A DNA stretch of 32,000 nt from Candidatus Arthromitus sp. SFB-rat-Yit (lineage in GTDB: Bacteria; Bacillota; Clostridia; Clostridiales; Clostridiaceae): the NCBI RefSeq assembly GCF_000283555.1, contig NC_016012.1, positions 1,290,001-1,322,000 on the forward strand, in the 5' to 3' direction. The position numbers were made by a program, and so were the translations under genes. Under the pieces are notes generated by a model. The model made no database searches, was not told the DNA's origin, and was given only the letters and a program-made list of their open reading frames with translations. How positions within the stretch are numbered: the first letter of the stretch is position 1; the number at the start of each line of letters is the position of its first letter. Below are positions 327 to 32,000 of this stretch, piece after piece.

Positions 327-2927
327 TCAAGCTAACCCCTCTTTAGGAGTTATATTTTGTTTATCCAAAATCACTTTATATAATTTATCATAATCTTCAT
401 AAAACGCTACTATTAAATCACCTTGCTTAGCATTATCAATAGCTTCACTTAAAGCCTTCCCCTCATCAAGAATTATTTTAAAATTTTTATTATCCCCAAA
501 ACCTTGACTAATGATATTTGCAACTTCACTTTCCTGTCTTCCACGTTTGTTACTATCTTCTTTTATATAAGAAAATTCCAAATGCTTAGAACAAAGTTTT
601 CCAATTTCAAATCCAACGCTATCATTTCTATCCCCAGGTATCCCTATAACACCCGTAACTTTAGTATATCCCATATTTTTTATACTATTAAAAATAGCAT
701 TAAACCCTTGAATATTGTGAGCATAGTCTAAAATAACCTTTACTCCCTTAATATCAAATTGATTAAATCTACCCTTATTGTGCTTATCATCACATTGAAA
801 ACTCTTAAGACCTTTAGATATTATACAATAATCTATCTCAAGCCCGACTAGAGAGGCAGTTGCCGTAAGAACATTTTCTATATTATGTGTAAGTGCACCA
901 TTAAAGGTAATTGGTATATCCTTTAAATCCGCAATGTGAAATATACGTCTATTCATCTCGACATAAATAGAATCATTCGATATGTATACTCCATAATTTC
1001 CTTTATCTAAATTTTCCCTTAAAAATTCATTATCCTTATCTTTTGAAAATACTATTAAATTACCCTTTGCTCTAGATGATATTTTCCTACACATTTCGTC
1101 ATCAGCATTTATTATAGAATATCCATCAGGTTTAACAGCTTCTATAACTAAAGATTTTACATGTGCTAGTTCTTCTAAGGTATTAACACCATCTATACCC
1201 AAATGATCTTCACTTATATTTGTAATTACTCCAACATCCGCTAGGTCATAAGCCAAACCATTTCTTATAATTCCCCCACGAGCAGTTTCTAATACTGCAA
1301 CATCAACATCTTTATTTAATAATATACTTCTTGCACTAAAAAAACCAGTCATATCTCCTTTAGCTATACACTGATCATTCAAAAAAACTCCACTAGTTGT
1401 AGTCATACCAACAGTGTATCCAAGACCCCTTAATGTATGGGACACAATTCTAGTTGTAGTTGTCTTACCATTAGTACCAGTTATTGCGATAACTGGTATA
1501 CTTTTAGGAGAATTTTTAAATAATGAAGAAACAATAACATTTGCTACATCCCTAGGTGTACCTTCACTTGGGTAATGATGCATCCTAATTCCCGGAGCAG
1601 CATTCACCTCAACTATAACTCCATTATCATATAAAGGTTTTGAAACATCCATGCAACAAAGATCTATACCACAAATATTAAGCCCTATTGCCTTAGCTGC
1701 TCTTATACAAATATCAATATTCTCTTTACAAATTTTATCTGTATAGTCTTCAGATGTTCCGCCCGTAGACAAATTTGAATTCTCTCTTAATACCAATTCC
1801 TTACCATCTTCTAAAATACTATCTAATTTATATCCACTCTTAGATATACAAAAAATCAACTCGTTGTCTATCTTAATTTTTGTAAGAGGTTTCTCATGCC
1901 CATCCCCCCTATTTACATCAGAATTTAAAACTTCTATTAAATCTTTAATAGTTGAAACCCCATCTCCTGTAACCATAGGTGGTTTCCTTTTAGATACTGC
2001 AATTACTTCACCATCTACAACACAAACTCTATAGTCATATCCTTCAATATATTGTTCTATCATAATATCTTTATACTTTGATTTAATTTCATTATAGGCT
2101 TCTATAAGCTGTTTCTCATTCTTAATATTTAAATATACCCCTTTACCTTGATACCCAAATCTAGGCTTAAGTACAACTGGATATCCTATGGCCTCAGCTT
2201 CTATTAATAGCTCTAATTGACTGCTTATTTTATCTCCTTTTGCTACAGGTAAAAACTGCATATCTAAGAGCCTTTTAGTTAACACCTTATCACTTGCAAT
2301 ATCCACACTAATAGAACTCGTATTTGAATCTATTGTTGCTTGGATCATTTTACTATATCTTCCATATCCAAGTTGAAACATCGAATCATCATCAAATCTT
2401 ATAACAGGTATACCTTGCTTTTTTGCAGCTTCACAAAGTGATAAAGCACTCGGTCCTAAATTCTCATACTCCAATATATTTTTTATATCACGAACTCTCG
2501 AGTCTAAATCTATATATTTCTTCGATATCAAAGAATTTATCAAATCTATAGCAAGTCTAACTATAGCCAATGCTGTTTTTTTGTAAATATACTCAAAAAC
2601 AACATAATAAAAATCTCCTTTAATTTCCCTAGCCTTACCATAGGCTATTTCCAATCCAACTCTACTATGTAACGCAATAATAGTGTGCTCACATACGTGA
2701 GCCAAATAAGTTCCTTCTCTTAATCTTTTTACAAACCCATGGTCCTCATCTATTCCACATCTATGTTCCCAAATCTCTGGCAATAGCTCTATCAATTTAT
2801 CATTAAATCCATCTATATCTTTACTAGGTGTTTCACAATATCCTTGTAAATCTACATCCATTCTGACCACTTTTCTATGAGAGTAAATATTTTTCCCCTC
2901 ATAAACTCTGTAATTTAAAATTTTCAT
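327..2927 (-). CDS. cphA: Cyanophycin synthetase
   Basis: 866 aa. It has an N-terminal ATP-grasp part and a C-terminal Mur-ligase-type part with the P-loop GTNGKTTTTR. The MKILNYRVYEGKNIYS start and the length are typical of CphA. Its ATG overlaps the cphB stop (TAATG). Confidence 0.95.
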   Translation of the reverse strand: MKILNYRVYEGKNIYSHRKVVRMDVDLQGYCETPSKDIDGFNDKLIELLPEIWEHRCGIDEDHGFVKRLREGTYLAHVCEHTIIALHSRVGLEIAYGKAREIKGDFYYVVFEYIYKKTALAIVRLAIDLINSLISKKYIDLDSRVRDIKNILEYENLGPSALSLCEAAKKQGIPVIRFDDDSMFQLGYGRYSKMIQATIDSNTSSISVDIASDKVLTKRLLDMQFLPVAKGDKISSQLELLIEAEAIGYPVVLKPRFGYQGKGVYLNIKNEKQLIEAYNEIKSKYKDIMIEQYIEGYDYRVCVVDGEVIAVSKRKPPMVTGDGVSTIKDLIEVLNSDVNRGDGHEKPLTKIKIDNELIFCISKSGYKLDSILEDGKELVLRENSNLSTGGTSEDYTDKICKENIDICIRAAKAIGLNICGIDLCCMDVSKPLYDNGVIVEVNAAPGIRMHHYPSEGTPRDVANVIVSSLFKNSPKSIPVIAITGTNGKTTTTRIVSHTLRGLGYTVGMTTTSGVFLNDQCIAKGDMTGFFSARSILLNKDVDVAVLETARGGIIRNGLAYDLADVGVITNISEDHLGIDGVNTLEELAHVKSLVIEAVKPDGYSIINADDEMCRKISSRAKGNLIVFSKDKDNEFLRENLDKGNYGVYISNDSIYVEMNRRIFHIADLKDIPITFNGALTHNIENVLTATASLVGLEIDYCIISKGLKSFQCDDKHNKGRFNQFDIKGVKVILDYAHNIQGFNAIFNSIKNMGYTKVTGVIGIPGDRNDSVGFEIGKLCSKHLEFSYIKEDSNKRGRQESEVANIISQGFGDNKNFKIILDEGKALSEAIDNAKQGDLIVAFYEDYDKLYKVILDKQNITPKEGLA

Positions 2928-3748
2928 TATTTTACTCTTTCCTCCTCAAGTGGTTGCTTTTTATTTAAATCAAAGCAATTTCCACTTTTTAAAACATGCA
3001 TTTTAACATTGAATAAACTCAAAGGAACTTCGTTTTCTTGCTCTAACAAACTACTATAAGTTAAATATCTTCCATCTATTATATAAACTGCTCCAGAACC
3101 TATAACACTAAAATACCCTTCTTTCTTATTTACTACTATTGCTGTATCTTCATCTATACCAATACCCAGAACACTCGGATTCTCCGCAATAGCTCCTAAT
3201 AATCTTCCTATTCTCCCTCTTTGGGCAAAATGTTGATCTATCATAACTCCTTGCATAAAACCAAATCCTGGGCATTTAGATAAATTATTCTTCCTTGGTG
3301 ATTCTTCGTCAGGTCCTCTAACAATCATAGTTTCACTCATAACTGATGCTCCTGCAGAAGTACCAGCAAATATGCCTCCATTATCATGAAATCTCCTCAT
3401 CTCTTCATATAAAGGAGTACCCCCTACTAAACTAGTTATTTTAAGCTGATTACCGCCTGTAAAAAATATCAATGAGGATTTCTTTACCATATCTAACAAA
3501 TCCTGATCATCGCATTGATCTCTAGAGGAAACATCTAAAATTTCAATATTTTTAACTCCAAGCTCATGGAATAAATTTTTGTAATCATATCCAATTTCTT
3601 TCCCTAAATCAGAAGCTAATGTAGAAACTATCATAGTATCTCTTTCTTTATCAATCATATTTGAAACTCTTCTTAATATTTCTCTGCTCCCACTCTTATC
3701 TTCTGCTCCACCAATAATTATAAGTTCACCCTTAATACCATAACTCAT
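2927..3748 (-). CDS. cphB: Cyanophycinase (peptidase S51)
   Basis: 273 aa. It has IIGGAEDK near the N-terminus and a GTSAGASVMS nucleophile-Ser motif. It is translationally coupled to cphA, which lies downstream. Confidence 0.9.
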   Translation of the reverse strand: MSYGIKGELIIIGGAEDKSGSREILRRVSNMIDKERDTMIVSTLASDLGKEIGYDYKNLFHELGVKNIEILDVSSRDQCDDQDLLDMVKKSSLIFFTGGNQLKITSLVGGTPLYEEMRRFHDNGGIFAGTSAGASVMSETMIVRGPDEESPRKNNLSKCPGFGFMQGVMIDQHFAQRGRIGRLLGAIAENPSVLGIGIDEDTAIVVNKKEGYFSVIGSGAVYIIDGRYLTYSSLLEQENEVPLSLFNVKMHVLKSGNCFDLNKKQPLEEERVK

Positions 3749-3883
3749 TAACTTCTCACCTCATGTACTTTAATATTTTTAACCACTATAAAAAATAATA
3801 TTCATAATTTTCTAATAATCCTTATATACCATTTCTAAAAAAGCTATGTTTATTGTGTACACTTTTTAAATAAAAATTCATAT

Positions 3884-3913
3884 CAAAAAAAGAGTGTAGC
3901 ATTCGCTACACTC
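3884..3913 (-). terminator. Rho-independent terminator after the SipL-like gene
   Basis: A 10-bp GC-containing stem AGAGTGTAGC/GCTACACTCT (3891-3900 pairs with 3904-3913) is followed on the minus strand by a T7 run. Confidence 0.8.
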
Positions 3914-3917
3914 TTAC

Positions 3918-5465
3918 TTAAAATACAGCTTTAGATGGAAGCAACAATTTACATCCAACTATTTCATCTTCCTGATCTAAATTATTAATCCTACATATAT
4001 CTTCTATTGAAACACAATATTTCTTAGCTATACTCCACAATGTATCATCTTCTCCTGTAATATATATTATAACACTACATTCTTTAAGAGGAGTTTCTTC
4101 TTGAGTTTTATACATATCAACTAATATATCCCTTTTAATTTCAGAATTAATGTAAACCCTTATATTTATAACCGCCTTTATTCCTATAGTCTTAGCCTCA
4201 ATAAAAGCTTCAATATTTTCCAAGTTCTCATTAATCACTGCATCCATATCTATTTTAATATTTTCATCATCAAAATTAGTAGTAAATGGAATAGCTTGTA
4301 CCACATTTAAAAATTGTCCTTCGCTATTTTTATATATAACCTCAGTATTTATAACACCTTCTATTACAAGTTTACCTTCCAAAACTTTCTTATTAAGTAT
4401 ATTGCACACACCAGTAGTATAAATTATAGAAACTGGAACATCTTCTACATTTATATTATCTTTAATTATCGTATCTATATTACCATGTGATTCTACATTA
4501 TTAATTTTATAATTATTTTTAACTAAATTTACTGAATAATTTTTACTATAAGCATCATCTATTATAGAAAGTATATTCTTACTTAAAACTTTAAGATTAC
4601 ATCTTATATTAATGTAACTATTTATAATCCTACTTTCTCCTGACTCATCCTCATCTATCATATACTCAAATCCAATCACATCCCAATTATATACTGGAAT
4701 CATGCTTGAATCTATACCATCTACATCACAATCTTTAGTTAAATATATATCTTGCTCTAAATAATTTAAATTATCAGAATTAACTTCTTTATATAATACT
4801 TTGACTTTACAATAAGCATTATATGTTATTTTATTATCTAAAAGTTTGCATTCTGTTTTGTATATATACGAATCACATATTAATATCTTTCCAATATCCC
4901 CCTTATCTAAAGGAACATTTATAGATGTTTCATTAATTAGTTCCTCTGTAAATGTACCTTTTAGTTCACATACTTCTAATTCTTTCATCAAAAACTGTAT
5001 ATCATCTTGATCTTCAATATCACTTACAATATCTACATCTAATATTTCATTCGAATTTGAACTAAATTTCAAATTAGCTTCTATGCTAATTTTTCTTTCA
5101 TTTAATAATAAGAATTTTTTATCTGAAACATTTACTTTAATATTATACAAATTTTCTTTTCTCATACCAACACTTTCAATATACAAATTAAACTTATCAG
5201 AATAAGAAACATTATATGTATTATTTTTTTCATCATCTACTGCAACATAAACAATACTATATACTAATTCTCCCTCTACAAATATTTTATCTAAAAATGC
5301 TTCAGTATTGGTAATTCTAGGTTTTACTTCTATTAATAATATTTTATCTACATCTGGATGAGTATCTGGAATTAAATATTCACCTTTAACTACAAAATCA
5401 TTGTGCCCTTCTATATTTTTACATTCATAACTAATTTTTTGTTTTATCAAATTTATCTCTTCCAC
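3918..5465 (-). CDS. sipL: SipL-like spore morphogenetic protein (long beta-rich N-terminal region plus C-terminal LysM)
   Basis: 515 aa with a GTG start 8 nt after GGAGG. The C-terminal LysM signature is GEDDTLWSIAKKYCVSIEDICRINNL...LLLP. The size, the LysM-at-C-terminus architecture and the position next to veg and yabG match my recollection of Clostridioides difficile SipL. Only the LysM motif is read directly from the sequence; the rest rests on architecture and synteny. Confidence 0.6.
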   Translation of the reverse strand: MEEINLIKQKISYECKNIEGHNDFVVKGEYLIPDTHPDVDKILLIEVKPRITNTEAFLDKIFVEGELVYSIVYVAVDDEKNNTYNVSYSDKFNLYIESVGMRKENLYNIKVNVSDKKFLLLNERKISIEANLKFSSNSNEILDVDIVSDIEDQDDIQFLMKELEVCELKGTFTEELINETSINVPLDKGDIGKILICDSYIYKTECKLLDNKITYNAYCKVKVLYKEVNSDNLNYLEQDIYLTKDCDVDGIDSSMIPVYNWDVIGFEYMIDEDESGESRIINSYINIRCNLKVLSKNILSIIDDAYSKNYSVNLVKNNYKINNVESHGNIDTIIKDNINVEDVPVSIIYTTGVCNILNKKVLEGKLVIEGVINTEVIYKNSEGQFLNVVQAIPFTTNFDDENIKIDMDAVINENLENIEAFIEAKTIGIKAVINIRVYINSEIKRDILVDMYKTQEETPLKECSVIIYITGEDDTLWSIAKKYCVSIEDICRINNLDQEDEIVGCKLLLPSKAVF

Positions 5466-5534
5466 TTTCTTACCTCCACGATTTAATTAATATATAATTA
5501 TTAATGTAAAAATAAAAATATTACCTTTTAACAT

Positions 5535-5571
5535 AAAAAAATTTAGGTTTATCCTCAAAGATAAACCTAAA
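5535..5571 (-). terminator. Rho-independent terminator after veg
   Basis: The stem TTTAGGTTTAT/ATAAACCTAAA (5542-5552 pairs with 5561-5571) is followed on the minus strand by a T7 run. Confidence 0.7.
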
Positions 5572-5614
5572 CTTAAAAATATCCTATATCATAACCTACA
5601 TATCCTAATAAGTA

Positions 5615-5851
5615 TTAACTAGCATAAACTATCTGAACAGTATTAGTCAATACATCAGAATAACTATATGTTACTATTCGTTGGGTGTCATTCTTTAATC
5701 TTATCAAAAAGATACTATGATATGTTTTTTCTATAGTACCTTCATTTATAAAGACTTTTCTTCTTCCTCCGCTAGCTCTTAATGTTACTTTATGACCAAC
5801 GTGATCTTCTATGTCCTTTTTTATGGATGCTAGTGTCTTAAATCCATCCAA
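5615..5851 (-). CDS. veg: Veg (small DNA-binding, biofilm-stimulating protein)
   Basis: LASIKKDIEDHVGHKVTLRASGGRRKVFINEGTIEKTYHSIFLIRL...YSYSDVLTNTVQI matches the Veg family. The track start (TTG at 5905) adds an implausible hydrophobic extension. A TTG at 5851 sits 9 nt after GAGG (AGAAAGAGGGTGTTAAATTTG) and gives a ~78 aa product of normal Veg size. Confidence 0.9.
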   Translation of the reverse strand: MDGFKTLASIKKDIEDHVGHKVTLRASGGRRKVFINEGTIEKTYHSIFLIRLKNDTQRIVTYSYSDVLTNTVQIVYAS

Positions 5852-5948
5852 ATTTAACACCCTCTTTCTAACTACAATTATAACATAAATGCATACTGTT
5901 GTCAAAATTTACCATTTAAATAGTATGCAAAATATTATATTAACCTAT

Positions 5949-6851
5949 TTAACACAAAAAAGATCTAGGAAATCCTTCTCTATACTTACCTCTTGTTTGT
6001 ATCCCACCAATGCCATTAAATCCAGTTATAGTTTCACTAACAATATCACTTATTTTAATTGTTTTATCAATGGACGTATTAAAAATCTTAGAACACACAA
6101 AAACTGGATCTAAACAATGCACTAAAATTCTTCCAGGAGATGTTGCAAAATTAGCTCCAACAGAAATTAAAGCCTCATAACAACTCTGACAAGCACCTGC
6201 AAATATAACTAAATCATCCAAATTCTTTTCATACGCCCTTAGTTTCGAAACACTTTCTACAAAATATTTAGAATTCTTATAGCAATTTAAATCCATATAA
6301 TCCACTATATTTTTACTCATACTATCATGACCTGTTAAAACCACAATATCCGGCTTGTAAAATTTAACTAGATCTAATATTACATCTGGTTGTTTACTTT
6401 CTTCAATGCATTCACCACAAGCATTAACAAAAACACTTTTATAAACTTCCATACATTTATTTAAATATTCATGATCCCCATCTACATGTAAAACCTTACC
6501 ACTTTTACCAAATGTTAGACCTTTTTTTTTATTTATTTTAAGACTTCTATTCTCAATATTCTTAGTGCTATTACGATAATTTCTACACTTAAATCTGTAA
6601 TCTAAATCTTTGCTCTTACTAATGGCTTGTTTAAGCTTTTCCTTCACTAATTGAGATAAATTATCTTCATATTTATTATCTACAATTTCTAAATCTTCTT
6701 CAAAAGCATCGGCTATGATCCTTATACTTTTCCCCTTTAATACAAAAACAATTTCCCCATTAATATCTTTAATATCAACTATCTTAAACTCTATATCTTT
6801 ACTGTAAGATTTTCTAACTACTATATCCCCTATTTCCATAAAATCTTCCAT
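5949..6851 (-). CDS. yabG: Sporulation-specific protease YabG (peptidase U57)
   Basis: 300 aa. It has the MEIGDIVVRKSYSKDIEFKI N-terminus, the VVLTGHD motif and a conserved C-terminal half typical of YabG. The true start may be the second ATG at 6839 (MEIGD...). Confidence 0.9.
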   Translation of the reverse strand: MEDFMEIGDIVVRKSYSKDIEFKIVDIKDINGEIVFVLKGKSIRIIADAFEEDLEIVDNKYEDNLSQLVKEKLKQAISKSKDLDYRFKCRNYRNSTKNIENRSLKINKKKGLTFGKSGKVLHVDGDHEYLNKCMEVYKSVFVNACGECIEESKQPDVILDLVKFYKPDIVVLTGHDSMSKNIVDYMDLNCYKNSKYFVESVSKLRAYEKNLDDLVIFAGACQSCYEALISVGANFATSPGRILVHCLDPVFVCSKIFNTSIDKTIKISDIVSETITGFNGIGGIQTRGKYREGFPRSFLC

Positions 6852-21211: not shown

Positions 21212-21246
21212 AAAGAGGCGTAGAATAATATATTCTACGCCTCTTT
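21212..21246. terminator. Bidirectional terminator shared by fba (+) and thiT (-)
   Basis: A 16-bp inverted repeat AAAGAGGCGTAGAATA/TATTCTACGCCTCTTT overlaps the thiT stop codon. Confidence 0.65.
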
Positions 21247-21831
21247 ATTAAAACTTTTTATCATTCTAACTAAAGGAATATATGCCATTAATATAGATGT
21301 CAATAATACCTCAACTCCAATACTTGAAAAATTATAACCTAAAGAATATATCCAAATATTTCTCCCTTCTGGAGCAAATTCACTAAAAAATAAAACACCT
21401 GATAAAACATTAAACATAACACATAAAATACCACTAAATAAACATCCTAAAAATATTCTAATCTTATTTTTCCTTCCAAAAATATTTGAAAATCCCAAAC
21501 ACATATTCGATAATAAATAATCCAAAATAAATTGAAGTGGATTAACCATAACTACCCCATCAAGTGTTTTTAAAACCCCAAGTAAAAGTCCAGATGTAAG
21601 TCCAGCACCTCTACCATGTACAAATGTAATTATCATAACAGGAAGCATTGAAAAAAATGTAATAGATCCACCCTGAGGCATTCTTATAAATTTAAACAAA
21701 TTAAGTATATATCCAATAGCAGAGAAAATTCCTATAACAATAATTAATCTTGTATCAAATTTAATCCTTTTTAATTCAAATAAATAAATACCTAAAAATA
21801 CAATTGTCAAAATTAAAATCAAAAAATACAT
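21235..21831 (-). CDS. thiT: Thiamine transporter ThiT (ECF-type S component)
   Basis: 198 aa polytopic membrane protein sitting directly behind a TPP riboswitch. The sequence resembles ThiT (…MPQGGSITFFSMLPVMIITFVHG…). Confidence 0.8.
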   Translation of the reverse strand: MYFLILILTIVFLGIYLFELKRIKFDTRLIIVIGIFSAIGYILNLFKFIRMPQGGSITFFSMLPVMIITFVHGRGAGLTSGLLLGVLKTLDGVVMVNPLQFILDYLLSNMCLGFSNIFGRKNKIRIFLGCLFSGILCVMFNVLSGVLFFSEFAPEGRNIWIYSLGYNFSSIGVEVLLTSILMAYIPLVRMIKSFNKEA

Positions 21832-21890: not shown

Positions 21891-21911
21891 TAAATACATA
21901 ATATTTAATTT

Positions 21912-22000
21912 AAAGCTTTCCTACGCTGGCATTATCCAGTTCAGGTTTAAGGGTTGACGATACAAAATATAATCATCTCTCAGCTTTAAGCACCCCTAGC
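21912..22000 (-). promoter_or_regulatory. TPP (THI-box) riboswitch aptamer
   Basis: The minus strand reads GCTAGGGGTGCTTAAAGCTGAGAGATGATT...TCGTCAACCCTTAAACCTGAACTGGATAATGCCAGCGTAGGAAAGC. This contains the conserved GGGGUGC, CUGAGA, ACCC, AACCUGA and UGGAUAAUGCCAGCGUAGG elements. Confidence 0.9.
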
Positions 22001-22021
22001 AAATATTTAATTTTGATTAAC

Positions 22022-22050: not shown

Positions 22051-22338
22051 TTATATCTGTATTTTTGATAATTCCTGATAAGCCTCAACCATTTTATTTC
22101 TAATTTCAATCGCTGTCTGAAGTGTAAGTCTAGCCTCTTGCATAGCTATCATAACATTATGAACTTCATTTTCATCACCCTTTATAAAAGATACAATACT
22201 GTTATCAGCTCTCTTTTGATAATTATCCAAACTATTTATAGAGTTATTTAACATTTCTGAAAATACGTTTTGCTTATTATTACCTACATTTAAAACTTCT
22301 TTATTAAAATTATTAAATACATTAATAGCACTTATCAT
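22051..22338 (-). CDS. fliE: Flagellar hook-basal body complex protein FliE
   Basis: 95 aa. The C-terminus VHNVMIAMQEARLTLQTAIEIRNKMVEAYQELSKIQI is the conserved FliE signature. A GGAGGGA RBS is present and the start is 13 nt after the fliF stop. Confidence 0.85.
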   Translation of the reverse strand: MISAINVFNNFNKEVLNVGNNKQNVFSEMLNNSINSLDNYQKRADNSIVSFIKGDENEVHNVMIAMQEARLTLQTAIEIRNKMVEAYQELSKIQI

Positions 22339-22351
22339 ACATATCCCTCCA

Positions 22352-23881
22352 TTATCTCGTATCTTCCATCATCCAAGATTTTATAATCTCAACTACTTGA
22401 CTCGGTTTAGTTATCGCATAATTTTTAATAGCATCCTCAAGCATTTTATTTTCCGGATTTGTATCTTCTATTCCATTTTTCTTAATATTTTCATCAACAC
22501 TTTGTTGTATCATATCTTTAGCTTCTGAAATAGACTGTGGCAAATTATCATTTTTAGATAAAGATGATAACTCTTTATTTTTCTTAAACATCCTTACTAA
22601 AAACAATATAACTATTAATACCACAACTGAAACTATTATAGGAATAATACCTCTTCTCTTTGCTTGAACAGCTTCTTGTTTAAGACCATTAAATTCCATT
22701 CCAACTACAGATATCGAATCTCCTCTTTCAGCATTGAAACCAATAACTCCATTAATTAAACTCTCTATATTTTCTCTCATTTCCTGAGTTATATTTCCAT
22801 CATATACAAAAGATGCTGTAATCCTTTTTATTTCTCCTGGAGCATATATAATAGTAGATTCTTGTTTAGATAATTCATAATTTGTTGTACTTTCTTCCCT
22901 ACTTGATTTATCGGAAGAATTACCTTCTTGAACATTTGACATATTATTATCGATAGGACCTCCCCCACCATTTAAAGAAGTACCATTCTCTTCTTTTATA
23001 AGATGCTCACTTACAGGTACCTTATTATCATCTACAATTATTTCAGTTTTCTTTTTTGAATCAAAATCTAATTCTGCATTAACACGAACTCTAACTTTAT
23101 CATATCCAAGCACTGGCTCAATTATAGATAAGATCCTACTCTCAAGTTCATGCTCAAATTTCCTCTCTAAATTCATTTGATTATCTAAACTACCCGCAAA
23201 ATTAAAATCATCGCTTCCATCATATATTCCAAGAGATAATAAATTCATTCGAGAATCTACTACTTCAACATTTTCGAAAGACAAATTATTCCAAGCTGCA
23301 GATACCAAATGAATTATAGATTTAACTTGATCTCTTGAAAGAGATTCTAAAGGATTTAATTTTAAATAAACAGATGCCTTAGCTGGATCTTTATCAGTCA
23401 TAAATACACTCGTCCTAGATGGTGAAATATGAACTCTAGCATCTTTTACTTGAGAAAAACTCCTTATAGTTCTCTCAAGCTCACCTTGTACAATCCTCTG
23501 TTTTTGTATCAAAAATTCTTCATCTGTATATCCAAATCCACTACTTTTATCTAAAAGTTCAAATCCTTTACTTCCTCCTTTTAACTCCGGAGAAAAAGTG
23601 AGTCTAAGTTCATCTACTTTATTTCTTAAAACATAAATAGACTTACCTCTTATCTTAACCTCTAATCCCATATCTACTAATTGTTCATGTATATACTTGC
23701 TATCAGAAGGATCCAAATCAGAATACAAAAGTCCATACTTAGTAACATTAGAGTACACTAAGAAAAAAGAAAGGAACAAAACTAAAATTATAAATGCACT
23801 AATAATTATCTTCTTCGTTCTCGGAGAAAACTTTTGTATAAAATTTTTAACTTTTTCAAGTATTTCTTTTAATTTTCCCAT
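22352..23881 (-). CDS. fliF: Flagellar M-ring protein FliF
   Basis: 509 aa. It has an N-terminal TM helix (IIISAFIILVLFLSFFLVY), YscJ/FliF ring-building regions, a second TM helix (IIPIIVSVVVLIVILFLV) and a FliG-binding-type tail (PSQVVEIIKSWMMED). Confidence 0.9.
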   Translation of the reverse strand: MGKLKEILEKVKNFIQKFSPRTKKIIISAFIILVLFLSFFLVYSNVTKYGLLYSDLDPSDSKYIHEQLVDMGLEVKIRGKSIYVLRNKVDELRLTFSPELKGGSKGFELLDKSSGFGYTDEEFLIQKQRIVQGELERTIRSFSQVKDARVHISPSRTSVFMTDKDPAKASVYLKLNPLESLSRDQVKSIIHLVSAAWNNLSFENVEVVDSRMNLLSLGIYDGSDDFNFAGSLDNQMNLERKFEHELESRILSIIEPVLGYDKVRVRVNAELDFDSKKKTEIIVDDNKVPVSEHLIKEENGTSLNGGGGPIDNNMSNVQEGNSSDKSSREESTTNYELSKQESTIIYAPGEIKRITASFVYDGNITQEMRENIESLINGVIGFNAERGDSISVVGMEFNGLKQEAVQAKRRGIIPIIVSVVVLIVILFLVRMFKKNKELSSLSKNDNLPQSISEAKDMIQQSVDENIKKNGIEDTNPENKMLEDAIKNYAITKPSQVVEIIKSWMMEDTR

Positions 23882-26341: not shown

Positions 26342-26591
26342 ATATTAGTGCTCCTCATAAATTAAATTTTAACTATAGCTAATCTTTCTAAAATTATATG
26401 TGTTTTTTAAAAAAATAGTTCTAACTACATATAAATATGCACCATGATATTTCTAGACAATATTTAAAAATTTATCGTTAAAAATCATTATAATTCTTAG
26501 TCAAATATTAAAATTTAACTATTTTTTTCGATAATTAATGTGTGTATTTAAATTTTGAAATTAAAAATCTTATATGTTTTTGGAGGTAGCT

Positions 26592-28034
26592 ATGAAAAAA
26601 AATTTAAGATTATTATGCAAAATAATAATGACATCTTTTATATGCAATTTTGCAATTAGTAATGCAAACATAAATATTGCAAAAGCTACTCGAACATCTA
26701 GGCCAGTTGTTATAAATAATTCATCACAGGAAACAACAGACAATACAAATGAAACAAATAATAATAATTCATCCTCAAATAGTAATTCATCTTCAAATTC
26801 TACTTCATCGGATTCAAACTCATCTTCAAATACTAATTCTTCATCTACCAATAGCTCAAACGAAAGTTCTGATTCTTCAGATGGCTATACTATAATAGAA
26901 CTTCTAAATTCTAATAAAAATCTAACTATAGATGATATAGAAAAGCTTGCTTTATCAGCATCACATTCATTAGATTTTATAGACGAGTTTAACCAAACAT
27001 TTCCAGAGTTTAATCCACTCAGGCAAATTACTCCAATAGATAATAACTTAAATAACTATTTGGATGTAAATAACAAAGAAATTTCAACAATAAAAGTAAC
27101 AAATACATCTCCTATTCCAATTTCTATTTATTCAGATCAAAATAACTGCAATATGCTATTAGGTGAAATTTCAACATTGCTTGGAGATTTAAAAAATGAC
27201 ATAGAAGAAGAACTCCCTTCAACTATTTTCTCATTAATGCCAACTATGTCAGTATTCAATGATACATTTAAAATTTTATGTGAAGAATACTCAAACGTCT
27301 TACAAAGTGACTATAAAAATCATATAACTTTAAACATTCTTCTTGAAAATTTAGAAACAAAGTTATCTTCACTTCTTAAATCTATTCAAGAATTTCAAAT
27401 TCAACTTCCAGATTTAATATCCACTCTAAATAAGATTGCTGAAGATATAGAAAATAGCAAAAACAATAACACAAACACAGATGAAGAAATTCCATCAGAA
27501 AATACAAACGAAGAAACTGATAACACAAACTCTGAAACTAATACGGATGAAACTACTAAACCGGATGGAGAAATAATTCAAGATAGTAATCAATCATCAA
27601 ACTCAAGTGATAAGAACGTATCAAACAATAACACAAACTCAAATAATAATAATACTAATACTAATACAGGCTCAGGAAATTCATCAGAAGATGTAACTGA
27701 TAATACAAATGCACAAGAGATGGTATACTTAGGTGAATATGGTCAACAACTTATTTATGACGAAGAAAGTAATAAATACTATGAGATCAATCCTGAAAAT
27801 CCTGAATCAGAAGAGTTTATAGAATATACTGGAGAAGTTACAGAAATGACACTTGAAGATTATTTAAGCACTGAAATGTATTTTGATAATGAAGGTAATG
27901 AATTATTTTATGATGAAGAAACAGATGAATTCTTAATATATGATGAAGAAACAGATGAATTTTTCATATACGAAGGAGAAGTAACAACTATGACTCTTGG
28001 AGATTATCTAGATCTTCTAGAAAATCAAGAATAG
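26592..28034 (+). CDS. Secreted Asn/Ser-rich protein with helical core and duplicated acidic C-terminal module (protein A); unknown family
   Basis: I place the start at ATG 26592 (GGAGG 5 nt upstream). The track start at 26574 lacks an RBS. The signal-peptide-like N-terminus is MKKNLRLLCKIIMTSFICNFAISNANINIAKA. It is followed by an N/S low-complexity tract, a helical middle and a C-terminal duplication ([FY]IEYxGEVTxMTLxDYL occurs twice). Confidence 0.7.
   Translation: MKKNLRLLCKIIMTSFICNFAISNANINIAKATRTSRPVVINNSSQETTDNTNETNNNNSSSNSNSSSNSTSSDSNSSSNTNSSSTNSSNESSDSSDGYTIIELLNSNKNLTIDDIEKLALSASHSLDFIDEFNQTFPEFNPLRQITPIDNNLNNYLDVNNKEISTIKVTNTSPIPISIYSDQNNCNMLLGEISTLLGDLKNDIEEELPSTIFSLMPTMSVFNDTFKILCEEYSNVLQSDYKNHITLNILLENLETKLSSLLKSIQEFQIQLPDLISTLNKIAEDIENSKNNNTNTDEEIPSENTNEETDNTNSETNTDETTKPDGEIIQDSNQSSNSSDKNVSNNNTNSNNNNTNTNTGSGNSSEDVTDNTNAQEMVYLGEYGQQLIYDEESNKYYEINPENPESEEFIEYTGEVTEMTLEDYLSTEMYFDNEGNELFYDEETDEFLIYDEETDEFFIYEGEVTTMTLGDYLDLLENQE
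27909..27968. repeat. In-frame 30-bp tandem duplication in protein A (YDEETDEF[LF]I x2)
   Basis: TATGATGAAGAAACAGATGAAT occurs at 27909-27930 and again at 27939-27960. The 8-nt tails differ at two or three positions. Confidence 0.9.
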
Positions 28035-28065: not shown

Positions 28066-28075
28066 TAATAAAATT

Positions 28076-28105
28076 AAAAGGTAGAGCAAAATTGCTCTAC
28101 CTTTT
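28076..28105 (-). terminator. Rho-independent terminator of the D-C-B operon
   Basis: The stem AAAAGGTAGAGC/GCTCTACCTTTT (28076-28087 pairs with 28094-28105) overlaps the protein B stop. T-rich sequence follows on the minus strand. Confidence 0.7.
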
Positions 28106-29330
28106 AATTATCCATCTCTAAATTATTCATATCTTCTATAAGACTTAGCCCCGCACCATAATATTCATCACTTATATCTCCATTTTCATGCATAGCATCT
28201 AATACATCTTCTGTAATAGCACCACTTCTTATACCAAAATCAAGAAGTATTAAATCATCAGCACTTAAATATCCTTCAGTAACTAAATAATGTTTTTCTG
28301 CATCCTCTGTTGACATAAGCATATCATCGCTAACACCTACAACAACTTCTTCTTTGGTATTTGTTCCTGACTTAACTATTATTTCTTCATATAAAATATC
28401 ATCATCTTCGTCTTTTTCATTTATTTCAAGCCTTATAACATTTGACGTATCCTCAGAACCTAAATTTATAACTTGAGATTTTGAAGTATTCTTATTCAAT
28501 ACCTTAGTATTTTGATTATTTTTATTAGTCGATACATTTACCACAACTGATTCTTCTTTATTTTGTGTTTGTGTTTCCTCTTGTTTTGATTCCTCTACAA
28601 CAGTATTTATTTCTTCCTTAACATTAGTATTTTCATCTACAACAGTATTTATTTCTTCCTTAACATTAGTATTTTCATCTACAACATCATTAACTATTTC
28701 ATTTACAAGCTCATTATCTACTATATCTACTGTATCTTCAATTTCATCATATAATGATTCATCTAAATCTTCGCTTTCAGTTACTATATTTTCAATTTGT
28801 GTATCATCTTCTTCTGCAGCTCCAAATCCTCCAACATGTATTCCTTTAGGTGGAGAACTAGGCTTGTGTAAATTCCCTTTAGATCTCATAGATTGGGCAG
28901 ACTGAGCTTCTTGAAGAGAAGTATTATCAGCAATAGATATATTTATTACTTTAGATTCGTCTTCTTCTTCTTGAGCTGACAACCTCACATTGTGTTCAGA
29001 AGATGTCTCAAGTAATTGTCTCATTCTTTCTTCTTCTGCTCGTCTTTTTTCCTCTTCTGCTTGTCTCCTTGCCTCTTCCTCTGCTTGTTTTCTCGCATTT
29101 CTTTGAGCCACAGTATCTGCAACACCTTGCCCAATACCAGCTACAGTACCTACAACCGTAGAAATAACACCAAATAATACTCCTATTAAGGCCTCAGACT
29201 CTTTTGGTTTTTGGTTACCTATAGCAGCTGCACTAGTTATACTAGCAACAGTTGCAAGTAGCGCAGCTTTCTTTAAAATTCCTTTTCTCTTACTTTGTTC
29301 ATTATTCTTATTTACATTAGTAGTTCCCAT
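28104..29330 (-). CDS. Membrane-anchored acidic repeat protein (protein B), short paralogue of the next gene; unknown family
   Basis: 408 aa with AAGGAGG 8 nt upstream. The N-terminus SKRKGILKKAALLATVASITSAAAIG is followed by the Gly-rich TM helix LIGVLFGVISTVVGTVAGIGQG. Next come the ER/K helix QAEEEARRQAEEEKRRAEEERMRQ, an acidic repeat region and C-terminal G-x-hydrophobic-[ST]-x-[DE] motifs. Confidence 0.75.
   Translation of the reverse strand: MGTTNVNKNNEQSKRKGILKKAALLATVASITSAAAIGNQKPKESEALIGVLFGVISTVVGTVAGIGQGVADTVAQRNARKQAEEEARRQAEEEKRRAEEERMRQLLETSSEHNVRLSAQEEEDESKVINISIADNTSLQEAQSAQSMRSKGNLHKPSSPPKGIHVGGFGAAEEDDTQIENIVTESEDLDESLYDEIEDTVDIVDNELVNEIVNDVVDENTNVKEEINTVVDENTNVKEEINTVVEESKQEETQTQNKEESVVVNVSTNKNNQNTKVLNKNTSKSQVINLGSEDTSNVIRLEINEKDEDDDILYEEIIVKSGTNTKEEVVVGVSDDMLMSTEDAEKHYLVTEGYLSADDLILLDFGIRSGAITEDVLDAMHENGDISDEYYGAGLSLIEDMNNLEMDN
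28595..28686. repeat. Perfect in-frame 42-bp tandem duplication in protein B (VDENTNVKEEINTV x2)
   Basis: 28599-28640 and 28641-28682 are identical (AACAGTATTTATTTCTTCCTTAACATTAGTATTTTCATCTAC). Four or five matching bases continue on each flank. Confidence 0.95.
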
Positions 29331-29366
29331 TTTTTCATCCTCCTTGAATATACAAATCCTTAAATA

Positions 29367-31499
29367 TTAAATTTTACCACTTGAATTAAATGTATCTAAC
29401 AACTGATTTATAACTTCTATTTGTTCACTTGTAAATGTTCCATCTTGTCCCATCTTTTCAACCATAGATTTATTAATTTTTGAAGATAAAATCAAGTTAA
29501 CTACAGCATCATATTCTCTTGCAGTAAATATTCCATCTGCAACACTTTTATGAGTTTCTGCTTTCTCTTTCGCTCTATTATATTCTTCTTTACTATATGC
29601 CTTATATCCATAGTTTTCACTCTGTGATATTACACTCTTACCACCAAACTTAGTATCGGTATACATACCACCATATCCACTAGCTGTAGCAACTCCAACT
29701 ACCTGAGCTATACTTCCTGATGGCACAAAGTTACCATCTTTATCAAAGTATCCTGATCCATCTTCTAAAACTAAATTACCATCTTTATCTATACTACCTA
29801 CGCCATTAATATCAATAGATCCATCTGGTTTAATAGCTCCACTTCCATCTGGCAAATGCAGAACACCATTTTGGTCAGTCCAGCTTCCATCTGGGTGAAT
29901 AACTATTCCTGTGAAAACGTTCAATTTACTTCCATCTGGGAGTATTATAACTCCATTTTCTGGATCATATTTACCACCTAGCTGAGCTGCTAATTTTTCA
30001 TATTCCTGAGTTTGCTGCTTTTTCGCAAGCTCCTCTTGTGCCTTTATTGCATCTTGTTGAAGTTTAACCTGCATTTCCATTGATTGTTGTCCTTGAATTA
30101 TACCTGCTATAGATGTACCTAGAAACGCAACTGTACTTAAAAGACCAACCGCTGTCATAACTTTATTAAACCTACCTCCGCTTGAACCACTTTGTTGAAT
30201 ATTGCCTGTATTACCAATTCTATTTGTATTTACAGATTCATTGCCTTGAGTTTTTAAGGAAGATGATTTAACTCCAGAAGTACTAGGTTTAACACTTCCA
30301 TTTTGTGATCCTGATGTAGTACTTCCCTGTCCTTTATTTCCAGTCGTTGTACCATTTGATGGTTTACCACCTGAATTTGTTTGAGTTATAACAGGTTGTT
30401 TTTGGGAAGAACCACTTGATCCACTTTGATTTGTGCTTAGACTAGGTTTATTTTGTGAAGTTCCTGTGTTTGGCTTTAATTGAGATGATCCAGATCCAGC
30501 ACTTCCTCCTGTTAATGGCTTATTTGATCCACTAGCTGTACTGTTTTCAAATTTACTAGTCAAATTAGATGTATTCCCTGGCTTCACTGGAACATCTGGT
30601 TTATTTTGTGAGCTTCCAGTTGTATTACTACTATTTGGCTTTAATTGAGATGATCCACTACTTGCCCCAGCTGATGGCTTATTTACTGCACCAGTTCCAT
30701 TATTTTCAAATTTACTAGTTAAATTCGCAGTATTCCCTGGTTTTACAGGAGCATCTACCTTATTTTGTGAATTTCCTCCAGTTGATGGTTTGTTTACTGA
30801 ACCAGTTCCACCATTTTCATACTTGTTAACCAAATTAGATGTATTCCCTGATGGTATACCTGTGCCATTTGTACCTGAAGTACTTGTATTCGGCTTACTT
30901 GGTGCTGTTACAGTATTTCCTGCATTTGGCTTACTTGGTGCTGTTACACTGCTTCCTGTATTTGGCTTAGTTGGTGCTGTTATACTGCTTCCTGCATTTG
31001 GTTTAGTTGGAGCTTTTATACCTCCTCCACTAGATGTTCCAGATGTTAATCCTTCAAATTTATTGATCAAACCACCTGTATTTCCTGGTTTTATACCTGT
31101 ACCAGTTGTACTTGAAGTTCCTGAAGTTGGTTTATTTGTTGAAGTTGTACCTCCTGGCTTAACTGTAGAACTTATACCTGTACCTCCAGGCTTAACTGAA
31201 CTTACACCTGTACTCGGCTTATATGAAGTATTCCCTAAACTTGTTGTTGGTTTAAATATACTTGTCCCTCCATTTACAGGGCGTTTAAATCCATTACTAC
31301 CTGTAAACGTATTAACTTTAACTGGATTAAACTTAACCGGAGCTTTCATCATAGCAGATGCCTTTTTTACAGTTCCTATATGCTGAGCTGCTATTCCCGT
31401 AACACCAACTAACGCTGTAGCCATAGCTACTCTATTTAAAAATTTCTTTCTTGATAAATCAGAATCATTATTATTCCGTTTATTATCATTTGAATTCAT
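29367..31499 (-). CDS. Large membrane-anchored low-complexity repeat protein (protein C); unknown family
   Basis: 710 aa. The N-terminus SRKKFLNRVAMATALVGVTGIAAQHIG...KKASA is followed by a ~390-aa S/T/G/N/P/K-rich region with internal repeats. Then come the TM helix VMTAVGLLSTVAFLGTSIAGIIQG, a Q/K/E helix, DG-type short repeats and a C-terminus with GIFTAREYDAVVNLIL and GTFTSEQIEVINQLL. Confidence 0.8.
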   Translation of the reverse strand: MNSNDNKRNNNDSDLSRKKFLNRVAMATALVGVTGIAAQHIGTVKKASAMMKAPVKFNPVKVNTFTGSNGFKRPVNGGTSIFKPTTSLGNTSYKPSTGVSSVKPGGTGISSTVKPGGTTSTNKPTSGTSSTTGTGIKPGNTGGLINKFEGLTSGTSSGGGIKAPTKPNAGSSITAPTKPNTGSSVTAPSKPNAGNTVTAPSKPNTSTSGTNGTGIPSGNTSNLVNKYENGGTGSVNKPSTGGNSQNKVDAPVKPGNTANLTSKFENNGTGAVNKPSAGASSGSSQLKPNSSNTTGSSQNKPDVPVKPGNTSNLTSKFENSTASGSNKPLTGGSAGSGSSQLKPNTGTSQNKPSLSTNQSGSSGSSQKQPVITQTNSGGKPSNGTTTGNKGQGSTTSGSQNGSVKPSTSGVKSSSLKTQGNESVNTNRIGNTGNIQQSGSSGGRFNKVMTAVGLLSTVAFLGTSIAGIIQGQQSMEMQVKLQQDAIKAQEELAKKQQTQEYEKLAAQLGGKYDPENGVIILPDGSKLNVFTGIVIHPDGSWTDQNGVLHLPDGSGAIKPDGSIDINGVGSIDKDGNLVLEDGSGYFDKDGNFVPSGSIAQVVGVATASGYGGMYTDTKFGGKSVISQSENYGYKAYSKEEYNRAKEKAETHKSVADGIFTAREYDAVVNLILSSKINKSMVEKMGQDGTFTSEQIEVINQLLDTFNSSGKI
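30543..30767. repeat. 159-bp-period internal duplication in protein C (QNKxDxPVKPGNTxNLTSKFEN)
   Basis: The 66-bp segments 30543-30608 and 30702-30767 align at roughly four positions in five by eye. They encode residues 298-319 and 245-266. Confidence 0.8.
30892..31020. repeat. 36-bp tandem repeat, about 3.5 copies, in protein C (APxKPNxGxxVT)
   Basis: The units begin with GGCTTACTTGGTGCTGTTAC... at 30892, 30928 and 30964, with a degenerate copy at 31000. All are in frame (12 aa). Confidence 0.9.
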
Positions 31500-31549
31500 A
31501 ATCCCTCTAACCCTCCTTGGACCTATAAAATAAGTATTATCTTATTTTG

Positions 31550-32000
31550 TTAAAAACTTCCATTAGTTTGAAAATACTGAAGCAGTTCAAGTGCAGCATT
31601 TGACTGCTCTAAACTTAAAAGATCATTTTCATACATGTACTCAATCATGAAGAAATTCATCCTACCACCTTCTATATTTTCCTTAATAGATTGAAGTTCT
31701 CTATGTGTAAAAATTCCCTCTTGAATAAATTTTTCGAACATGTCCTTATTTTTAAGAACCCTCGCTTCAGATATTCCTGTTTCAAATTTTGTTATATCAT
31801 TATTATCGTAATCTACATCTTCATAATACATAGAGTAAGTACTTCTTCTTGTATTATCTTCATTTTTCTCTATTACAACTGCATCCTCAAACCTTTCATC
31901 AACAAACTCATCTTCTTTAGAATCCCCTCCTCCATCTTCAGAAGGAGTAAAGTTTCCGTCCTTATCATAAACTCCTGAACCATCTGATGGATAAAAGTTT
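31550..32000 (-). CDS. C-terminal part of a third paralogue (protein D); gene continues beyond the right edge
   Basis: The frame of the 93-aa track ORF stays open for all 56 codons upstream to the window edge. There is no RBS before the ATG at 31831. The upstream translation ...YPSDGSGVYDKDGNFTPSEDGGG... matches protein C (DGSGYFDKDGNFVPSG). The C-terminus has GIFTHRELQSIKENI and LLSLEQSNAALELL motifs. Confidence 0.7.
   Translation of the reverse strand, partial: NFYPSDGSGVYDKDGNFTPSEDGGGDSKEDEFVDERFEDAVVIEKNEDNTRRSTYSMYYEDVDYDNNDITKFETGISEARVLKNKDMFEKFIQEGIFTHRELQSIKENIEGGRMNFFMIEYMYENDLLSLEQSNAALELLQYFQTNGSF

Follow-up and report, generated by a model that had tools for sequence, protein, structure and literature searches.

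A modular membrane-protein operon confined to segmented filamentous bacteria, with a candidate surface-displayed tail that varies between strains

At one end of a 32,000-nucleotide stretch of Candidatus Arthromitus sp. SFB-rat-Yit (NC_016012.1, positions 1,290,001 to 1,322,000; hereafter the window), three genes, here called D, C and B, form an operon encoding modular proteins whose named relatives all belong to the segmented filamentous bacteria (SFB). We tentatively propose that D, C and B are co-transcribed subunits of an envelope-spanning, sortase-independent membrane complex, restricted to SFB, that displays disordered tails at the cell surface. A bolder version, in which this would be a display machine unique to SFB and the tail of C a strain- or host-specific contact or antigenic determinant, such as a holdfast component or an immunoglobulin A (IgA) target, seems to us unlikely on present evidence. 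SFB are model commensals that induce intestinal T helper 17 (Th17) cells and IgA through attachment to the ileal epithelium. They have no sortase and are hard to culture, and the molecules responsible for attachment and host specificity are unidentified (PMC7474095).

The initial annotation of this DNA, made from its letters alone, had described three co-oriented open reading frames (ORFs) with gaps of 50 and 36 nt and a single terminator after B. ORF calls and a terminator scan agree with this layout, and every peptide quoted in that annotation is found in the translations. The unit comprises, in the coordinates of the window:

28104..29330, minus strand: gene B, 408 amino acids (aa), ORF call
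29367..31499, minus strand: gene C, 710 aa, ORF call
31550..>32000, minus strand: 3' part of gene D, 149 codons plus stop, open at the window edge, with the 5' part beyond it
31518..31512, minus strand: ribosome-binding site AAGGAGG of gene C
29345..29339, minus strand: ribosome-binding site AAGGAGG of gene B
28072..28109, minus strand: intrinsic terminator closing D-C-B, a 17-pair stem plus T-run directly after B

Both spacers, of 50 nt between D and C and 36 nt between C and B, thus hold an AAGGAGG ribosome-binding site, and the scan of the minus strand between D, C and B gave no further terminator. In mouse SFB an equivalent hairpin also follows B. Furthermore, a conserved terminator hairpin stands after the upstream M28 peptidase gene and separates it from D in mouse SFB, in a metagenome-assembled genome (MAG) and in two poultry-type loci; because of this hairpin, D-C-B constitutes its own transcription unit. 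As judged from the sequence, D, C and B are co-transcribed, separately from the M28 peptidase gene. The synteny of the operon is kept in the rat, mouse, poultry-type and MAG lineages, and its neighbours encode peptidases, FeoAB and FliF/FliE. In the region upstream of D, which is conserved, no convincing match to a sigma-70 or sporulation-type promoter was found, and Rfam at gathering thresholds gave no leader RNA for the operon, its sole match being a thiamine pyrophosphate (TPP) riboswitch elsewhere. The source SFB has a G+C content of ~27-30%, and gene B is identical to WP_014095171.1 / BAK81711.1 of SFB-rat-Yit, deposited as 'hypothetical protein'.

Comparisons were made with a longer contig (L001), a poultry-type locus (L003), the MAG (L004) and two mouse SFB genomes, AP012209 (L005) and CP008713 (L007); the operon is complete in the MAG and in both mouse genomes. 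The rightward extension that the initial annotation had advised for D yielded 345 aa on L001; complete orthologues of 597-647 aa lie in L004 and L005. Since a scan of GTDB genomes returned one locus, a MAG, the complete rat-strain D is not among our sequences, and D is described here from its orthologues.

The three genes had been put forward as tandem paralogues. For C and D this holds: the BLASTP alignment (E=4e-31) covers 307 columns, starting with the membrane helix and running to the C-terminal end, and as far as sequence can tell they are clear paralogues. For B it holds for modules and fails over the whole length. Pairwise BLASTP of B with C or D is not significant (E 0.3-0.4), and B has no DGS repeats, which makes it a partial paralogue. 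At the profile level, by contrast, 21 B-family sequences match the C/D profile over the last ~70 residues (hhalign 94.5%, E=7.6e-8). In the column-shuffle control of this end domain the real score of 45.6 stands against 10.7 +/- 2.5 (maximum 19.8), and none of 200 shuffles reaches it, so that the similarities noted initially go beyond composition. The N-terminal modules also match one another as profiles, at 97% for C-D (P=1e-10), 93% for C-B (4e-7) and 94% for D-B (1.4e-7). With reciprocal hidden Markov models (HMMs), B, C and D were the sole matches among all ORFs of the window and of three other loci, and the C-terminal HMM of B finds D at E=9e-6. The profiles thus link B to C and D by two modules, the signal-like N-terminal segment and the end domain; in its overall plan B has in common with them only the N-terminal module, a membrane helix followed by a charged helix, and the C-terminal domain.

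Altogether, a common plan emerges, consisting of a signal, a variable insert, a glycine-zipper helix, a coiled coil, DGSGYxDKDGNF hairpins (in C and D) and an end domain. The initial description of two hydrophobic segments per protein is upheld for B, C and D by hydropathy and approximate insertion energies, as is the variable stretch between them, which measures 10 aa in B, ~395 in C and ~240-310 in the D orthologues. The first segment generally reads [KR]-[RK]-K-[FIV]-L-[KN], then a 15-19-residue stretch of Ala, Thr, Gly, Val and Ile, then a small-x-small site. The membrane helices of all three proteins show GxxxG or glycine-zipper spacing, and the beta-hairpin repeats of DGSGYxDKDGNF type number 5-7 in C and D.

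The orthologues of C, of 584-714 aa, come from SFB-type sequences only. The parts of C are:

31353..31499, minus strand: aa 1-49, long putative Sec-type signal, from an alignment of 8 orthologues
30165..31352, minus strand: aa 50-445, basic disordered insert, from composition, motif alignment and repeats
30090..30161, minus strand: aa 447-470, membrane helix VMTAVGLLSTVAFLGTSIAGIIQG, Kyte-Doolittle 1.96
29976..30089, minus strand: aa 471-508, long Gln/Glu/Lys-rich helix, coiled-coil-like, from AlphaFold2
29715..29975, minus strand: aa 509-595, degenerate PDGS / DGSGYFDKDGNF beta-hairpin repeats, from AlphaFold2
29370..29591, minus strand: aa 637-710, shared C-terminal helical domain (GIFTAREYDAVVNLIL, GTFTSEQIEVINQLL), from AlphaFold2 and hhalign

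The signal of C combines the basic motif SRKKFL and an Ala/Thr/Gly/Val h-region with a conserved [AVT]-S-A cleavage-type site. The insert that follows (~395 aa) has the composition S18 G16 T14 N12 K9 P8 % and an isoelectric point (pI) of 10.6. Within it, islands are kept across lineages: F-x-G-S-x-G-x-x-R-P near the start, TAPxKP, and a juxtamembrane S-L...V-N-x-x-R. The motif KPGNTxNLxxKFE occurs in four copies (aa 137, 216, 253 and 306) and in one to four copies across lineages. The insert also contains tandem DNA repeats, with units of 36 nt and 33 nt: one at 30888-31018 (36 nt x 3.6, 88%) and one at 31146-31227. The membrane helix, with its small-xxx-small / GxxxG spacing, is nearly invariant in the orthologues. 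AlphaFold2 models the following segment as a single helix (model residues 29-69, predicted local distance difference test (pLDDT) 79-89), the repeats as strands of stacked beta-hairpins (residues 72-155, pLDDT 72-89) and the end domain as helices (residues 199-269, pLDDT 70-90).

D follows the plan completely; it carries 6-7 DGSGYxDKDGNF repeats (L001, L004 and L005), a conserved [TAV]-Q-A site in its signal and, in the orthologues, an insert of ~240-310 aa with S24 P17 K15 % and a pI of 10.5. The window holds two of its parts:

31934..31999, minus strand: last 1.5 copies of the 15-residue DGSGYxDKDGNF beta-hairpin repeat, matched by the C/D repeat HMM
31553..31777, minus strand: shared C-terminal helical domain, ~75 aa, with two G-x-[ILF]-[TS]-x-x-[EQ] motifs, from hhalign

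In B the plan is reduced at the insert and extended behind the membrane helix:

29118..29297, minus strand: aa 12-71, signal-like module, link and membrane helix, from the 21-sequence alignment and insertion energies
28356..29114, minus strand: aa 73-325, charged helix, then motifs, then acidic region, from the alignment and AlphaFold2
28116..28340, minus strand: aa 331-405, shared C-terminal helical domain with GYLSADDLILL, GAITEDVLDAM and GDISDEYYG

Its first module consists of KRKGILKK plus the h-region, the 10-residue link N-QKPKESEA and the glycine-zipper membrane helix LIGVLFGVISTVVGTVAGIGQG; in the link Q40, P42, K43, E44, S45 and A47 are invariant in 21 sequences. AlphaFold2 models the charged helix at aa 73-109, and the rest of aa 73-325 lies below pLDDT 50. 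This part contains the conserved short motifs HNVRL, K-x-I-[DN]-I-S-x-A-D-N and PPKG-x-x-VGGFG and a variable acidic disordered region of pI 4.05, with a tandem DNA repeat at 28590-28686 (42 nt x 2.3, 98%). The near-perfect tandem repeats of B and C could allow length variation by slippage or unequal recombination. The end domain is the sole confident part of the B model (pLDDT 83-90), and its helices 357-369, 374-382 and 388-407 match those of C in length and order.

How these proteins sit in the envelope was approached through their two hydrophobic segments. Approximate insertion energies, on a scale that ignores position in the helix, are +3.4 to +5.8 kcal/mol for the first segment (C +4.6, B +5.8), +4.6 and +3.3 kcal/mol for the signals of E and M28, secreted proteins encoded nearby, and, for the second segment, about 0 to +0.9 kcal/mol in B (+0.2) and C (+0.9) and +3.8 to +4.0 in D. 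On this approximate measure the first segment appears too polar for a stable anchor and resembles a signal peptide; the only marginal hydrophobicity of the D helix would fit a dependence on partner helices. The first segment shows the anatomy of a Sec signal, in which a basic n-region leads into an apolar h-region and small residues occupy -3/-1 of a conserved site, and the [AVT]-S-A site of C and the [TAV]-Q-A site of D are conserved where the surrounding sequence is not. SFB possess Sec and lack Tat, according to their genome paper (Kuwahara et al. 2011; PMC3158464). Taken together, the weak hydrophobicity of the first segment, the AxA sites and the reported absence of Tat favour export through Sec, probably followed by cleavage, with the insert outside the cell and the remainder in the cytoplasm. 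The two portions differ in charge, the inserts having a basic pI of 10.5-10.6 and the remainders an acidic one of 4.2-4.8. In the helix pair of B, 4 and 3 basic residues flank the outer ends and 2 lie in the link, a distribution that fits both ends facing inwards. We infer that the insert lies outside and the remainder inside, a topology now better supported than when it was first suggested.

The same N-terminal segments have the shape of twin-arginine (Tat) signals, which would make the proteins Tat substrates with a C-terminal anchor: a long n-region, S-R-K-K-F-L-N resembling S-R-R-x-F-L-K, an Ala/Gly/Thr-rich h-region, a basic c-region, AxA and a weak match to TIGR02811 (E=0.07). However, the residues at the motif are [KRS]-R-K-K-[FVI]-L in C, RKKFL, KKKLI, RRKIL or KKQLL in D, and R-[KE]-x-[ILV]-L-K-K in B. 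A pair of arginines is not conserved: R-K stands in C and K-K-K in mouse D, and R-R occurs in one poultry D only. No TAT-signal model matches significantly, and the translocase is reported absent from SFB (PMC3158464). On these grounds Tat export is effectively refuted and in our judgement highly improbable.

We thus propose the following arrangement. Each protein would be exported through Sec by its long, weakly hydrophobic signal, which would probably be cut at the conserved AxA site, and the stretch behind the signal would remain outside, as basic disordered tails of ~395 aa in C and ~240-310 aa in D and as an invariant 10-residue stub in B. The tails, rich in Ser, Thr, Gly, Asn, Pro and Lys and bearing a few conserved short motifs, would be long enough to thread a thick cell wall. 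The glycine-zipper helix would then anchor each of the three proteins in the membrane, leaving the acidic remainder in the cytoplasm, with the long helix, the hairpin repeats (C and D), a disordered acidic scaffold (B) and the common end domain. The common helix and end domain may hold B, C and D together. Such a complex would tether the displayed tails to a cytoplasmic scaffold, and the distal part of the C tail could meet wall polymers, mucus, host cells or antibodies.

The pattern of selection follows the division into ordered and disordered modules. Between rat and mouse SFB, the ratio of nonsynonymous to synonymous substitution rates (dN/dS) in C is 0.06 for the membrane helix plus long helix, 0.12 for the repeats and 0.18 for the end domain; the ordered modules of D give 0.08-0.14, with 0.09 for the end domain, and the neighbours FeoB and FliF give 0.14 and 0.11. 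The acidic region of B reaches 0.53, and the C insert, at 47% identity with 102 gap columns, reaches 0.51. Comparative sequence analysis thus indicates functional genes whose ordered modules are constrained and whose disordered ones evolve fast.

A further, strain-level signal lies within mouse SFB, where we compared 21.2 kb of AP012209 (L005), CP008713 (L007) and a metagenome scaffold. Fifty-one of 80 and 46 of 80 nucleotide differences, or 58-64%, fall within the 1.5 kb encoding the C insert (L005 8001-9500, the mouse orthologue of window positions ~30165-31352), with 37 and 29 in one 500-nt bin, against 0-2 per 500 nt elsewhere. In the insert, the proportions of synonymous (pS) and nonsynonymous (pN) differences are 0.064-0.074 and 0.033-0.040, and indels give proteins of 690 or 675 aa; in the flanking genes and in the membrane-to-end part of C, pS is up to 0.024 and pN <= 0.003. 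The hot spot is not an assembly artefact, since the independent assemblies L006 and L007 share one allele class against L005.

The initial annotation could name no family for these proteins, and the searches agree. Pfam and NCBIfam at E<=10 gave nothing meaningful for B, C, D, the convergent neighbour E or eight orthologues, and PDB profile searches as well as Foldseek against the PDB with both models (B and C) gave nothing significant. Word-indexed searches of 5.8 billion proteins returned 64 clusters for B and 16 for C/D, none with a Pfam domain, and every named homologue cluster is Candidatus Arthromitus; the mapping of taxonomic distribution that had been called for thus ends, among named homologues, in SFB alone. 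An exhaustive HMMER search of the C/D profile against 1.84 billion representatives found 60 proteins at E<1e-3. Beyond orthologues these fall into two classes. In the first, of large proteins, GYYDxDGNF-type stretches recur many times and the N-terminus mostly bears a signal or an anchor; the second comprises a few small Firmicute proteins, likewise with signals, whose similarity is to the end domain. One Pfam candidate, PF03035 (calicivirus VP2), matched the membrane helix plus Gln-rich helix of D orthologues at E=1.6e-4 with 22 bits against a threshold of 27 and was judged compositional.

For the end domain, a resemblance to SHOCT had been suggested. As a description of the motif this was fair: in SHOCT (PF09851) and SHOCT-like (PF22746) a G-[ILV]-[ILF]-[TS]-x-[DE]-[EQ]-hydrophobic sequence opens a helix at the very C-terminal end of proteins anchored in the membrane, much as seems to be the case here, where each protein has two or three copies of a motif resembling the core G-[IV]-[IL]-T-x-E-E-[FY]. 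As an assignment it did not stand, since at E<=10 (gathering score 27 bits) PF09851 is not matched by B, C, D or the eight orthologues (D on L001, P0079-81, P0070, P0078, P0008 and P0050), nor do any of these match PF22746 directly. The link is indirect, through DUF2680 and through proteins that stay below the SHOCT thresholds, the C/D profile finding P0133 (25.7 bits against the cut-off of 27) and P0107 (26.0 bits on SHOCT-like). Moreover, SHOCT is a single ~28-residue module, whereas the unit of B, C and D spans ~70 residues with four to five helices and holds the motif two or three times. Among outside proteins, the closest match to the end domain is DUF2680 (PF10925), a group of small proteins that Firmicutes secrete and in which G-x-L-T-x-E-Q helices recur. 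The C/D profile finds P0107 (E=2.8e-6) and P0119 (E=1.8e-4) over profile positions 121-207, and P0107 and P0119 are themselves DUF2680 proteins at 74.6 and 54.2 bits. The members of DUF2680, however, are short and signal-bearing and have no membrane helix, and B, C and D do not match PF10925 directly; a shared helix-capping motif rather than common descent could explain the match.

The hairpin repeats of C and D resemble DUF6799 (PF20606). The C/D repeats match P0083 (E=2.5e-56, 19 stretches; 22 with a local HMM), P0085 (3e-26), P0087 (1.8e-21) and P0088 (3.7e-18), all four of which lie above the DUF6799 threshold, and P0083 is the strongest non-orthologous match to the C/D profile. C, D and their orthologues, in contrast, have no direct Pfam match, and their mere 5-7 repeats have the coiled coil on one side and the helical domain on the other and probably face the cytoplasm. 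P0083 itself is a signal-bearing protein of 2102 residues made up largely of ~20 GYYDxDGNF repeats like those of D, encoded at positions 332-6640 of a metagenome contig (L008) of ~30% G+C.

Among surface proteins, the nearest likeness of the tails is to the low-complexity stalks that span Gram-positive walls, as in serine-rich repeat adhesins, and to Pro/Lys-rich spacers such as that of TonB. A long, basic, Ser/Thr/Pro/Gly/Lys-rich, repeat-bearing and length-variable region after a long signal peptide is common to both. The SFB proteins differ in that they show no globular ligand-binding head and no match to a KxYKxGKxW-type signal model, that the LPXTG sorting signal is absent from the B, C and D translations, and that they are anchored by a membrane helix followed by a predicted cytoplasmic part of 240-340 residues. 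SFB also encode the secreted proteins of Cluster.1 and Cluster.3, including the Th17 antigen P3340, with DUF4214-like C-terminal regions (PMC3371716, PMC7474095). An identity with these was rejected, B, C, D and their orthologues having no PF13946 match; P3340 epitope strings are absent from all loci in six frames.

Several observations weigh against the proposed complex. In C and D the second helix is preceded by 2-3 Lys or Arg and followed by 1-2 Lys or Arg plus 2-3 Asp or Glu, so that the positive-inside rule tips mildly towards the reverse orientation. Among outside proteins, the closest relatives of the hairpin repeats (P0083, P0085 and P0089, giant proteins with signals or anchors) and of the end domain (P0107, P0119 and P0133, small secreted proteins with GxLTxEQ helical repeats) carry N-terminal signals and are probably extracytoplasmic. 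The D insert, equally low in complexity, is almost invariant between the same mouse strains, and disorder alone hence does not account for the hot spot in C. There, pN/pS is 0.45-0.63, below 1, and pS is raised too, a pattern better explained by recombination or long-lived alleles than by simple positive selection; exchange among the repeats, through recombination or gene conversion, could produce the hot spot without any immune or host selection. And whereas the operon, its shared modules, the asymmetry of composition and charge, the selection pattern, the lineage restriction and the hot spot are shown, we infer export, cleavage, topology, the oligomerisation of B, C and D and the surface role.

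The flanking charges and the secreted relatives, along with the weak hydrophobicity of the first segment, would agree with an inverted topology, in which only the second segment spans the membrane with its N-terminal side inside; everything behind it, from the coiled coil through the DGS repeats and acidic regions to the end domain, would then lie outside the cell and might, for instance, bind the wall or a ligand, and the N-terminal segment and insert would be cytoplasmic or peripherally attached. Yet a 15-19-residue Ala/Thr/Val/Gly/Ile stretch behind a basic n-region and before AxA is the standard anatomy of exported proteins, a basic Ser/Thr/Pro/Gly/Lys tract of 400 residues typifies regions that span the wall and not bacterial cytoplasm, and the charges of B favour both ends inside. 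DUF6799-type repeats, moreover, also occur together with C2 and PDZ domains (P0087 and P0088) and so mark no compartment. We consider the inverted arrangement quite improbable. A different possibility keeps the topology and changes the purpose: the proteins would form a lineage-specific landmark or scaffold for SFB development, at segment septa or the holdfast pole or in the formation of intracellular offspring or spores, with the acidic region and short motifs of B recruiting partners in the manner of HubP/FimV and the external tails merely fixing the complex to the wall. In HubP/FimV-type polar hubs a signal or membrane anchor is followed by a disordered region, long, acidic and rich in repeats, and by a small conserved C-terminal domain. 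B parallels this architecture but has neither LysM nor the FimV C-terminal domain nor any Pfam or NCBIfam model match, and no homology between the two was detected. The predicted cytoplasmic modules are the most conserved ones and the family is confined to a lineage with a unique developmental cycle, as such a role would lead one to expect. On the other hand, Pfam, NCBIfam and PDB profiles relate the three proteins to none of the known hub, division or sporulation proteins, developmental genes do not adjoin the operon, and the short motifs and strain-level hot spot of the C insert would go unexplained. This purpose strikes us as doubtful. That ORFs and similarities are artefacts of low-complexity, AT-rich sequence might be argued from the fact that over half of each protein is low-complexity and 255 of the 408 residues of B have a pLDDT below 50. 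The likelihood of this is practically nil: purifying selection on the ordered modules (dN/dS 0.06-0.18) and the column shuffles, which the profile matches survive, refute it, and conserved synteny across all four lineages, with ribosome-binding sites and terminators in place, speaks against it as well.

The surroundings of the operon yielded further observations. The convergent gene E (26574..28034, plus strand, likely start 26592) encodes a signal-bearing, Asn/Ser-rich protein with a strongly conserved central domain of ~190 residues and C-terminal Y-x-G-E-V-x-x-M-x-L-x-D/E-Y-L repeats. Neither Pfam nor NCBIfam assigns it to a family. Its synteny is kept in all lineages, and the MAG has two copies (L004 12168-12944 and 13110-14501); the differences between mouse strains comprise 5-7 nonsynonymous and 0 synonymous ones, together with an indel of 8 codons. 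As a fourth member of the D-C-B family E was rejected, with hhalign values of 1% and 0.2% and only a 10-residue YFDxxGNE motif in common. In the MAG, a gene for a 268-residue multi-pass membrane protein (L004 11315-12121), absent from rat and mouse, lies between B and the E paralogues. Between E and feoA, the poultry-type locus and the MAG carry a gene for a DtxR/Fe-dependent repressor (L003 14024-14491, L004 14598-15095), which is absent from that position in the rat window (26342-26573) and in mouse SFB. Beside feoAB, synteny with mouse identifies fliF (22352..23881, minus strand) and fliE (the downstream ORF at ~22054-22368); at about 4 kb from the operon, no link of fliF/fliE to D-C-B was found. 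The TPP riboswitch (Rfam RF00059, 70.3 bits) lies at 21901-22007 on the minus strand, upstream of the ORF 21235..21831, which by synteny with the mouse locus encodes a ThiT/YuaJ-type thiamine transporter.

In summary, our analysis describes an SFB-restricted operon whose parts are of known kinds, namely a putative Sec signal, a disordered stalk of wall-spanning type, a glycine-zipper helix, a coiled coil, hairpins like those of DUF6799 and a helical module resembling DUF2680 and SHOCT; their combination and their restriction to SFB are undescribed, no description of B, C or D having been found in the SFB genome papers or elsewhere in the literature. The C insert offers a concrete candidate for a component that faces the surface or the host, as well as a useful marker for strain typing. 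Should the proposed complex prove true, it would represent an alternative route for the surface display of polypeptides in a bacterium that has no sortase (PMC7474095). If instead the tails are cytoplasmic or the complex is developmental, D-C-B would still constitute a lineage-specific module tied to the unusual cell biology of SFB.

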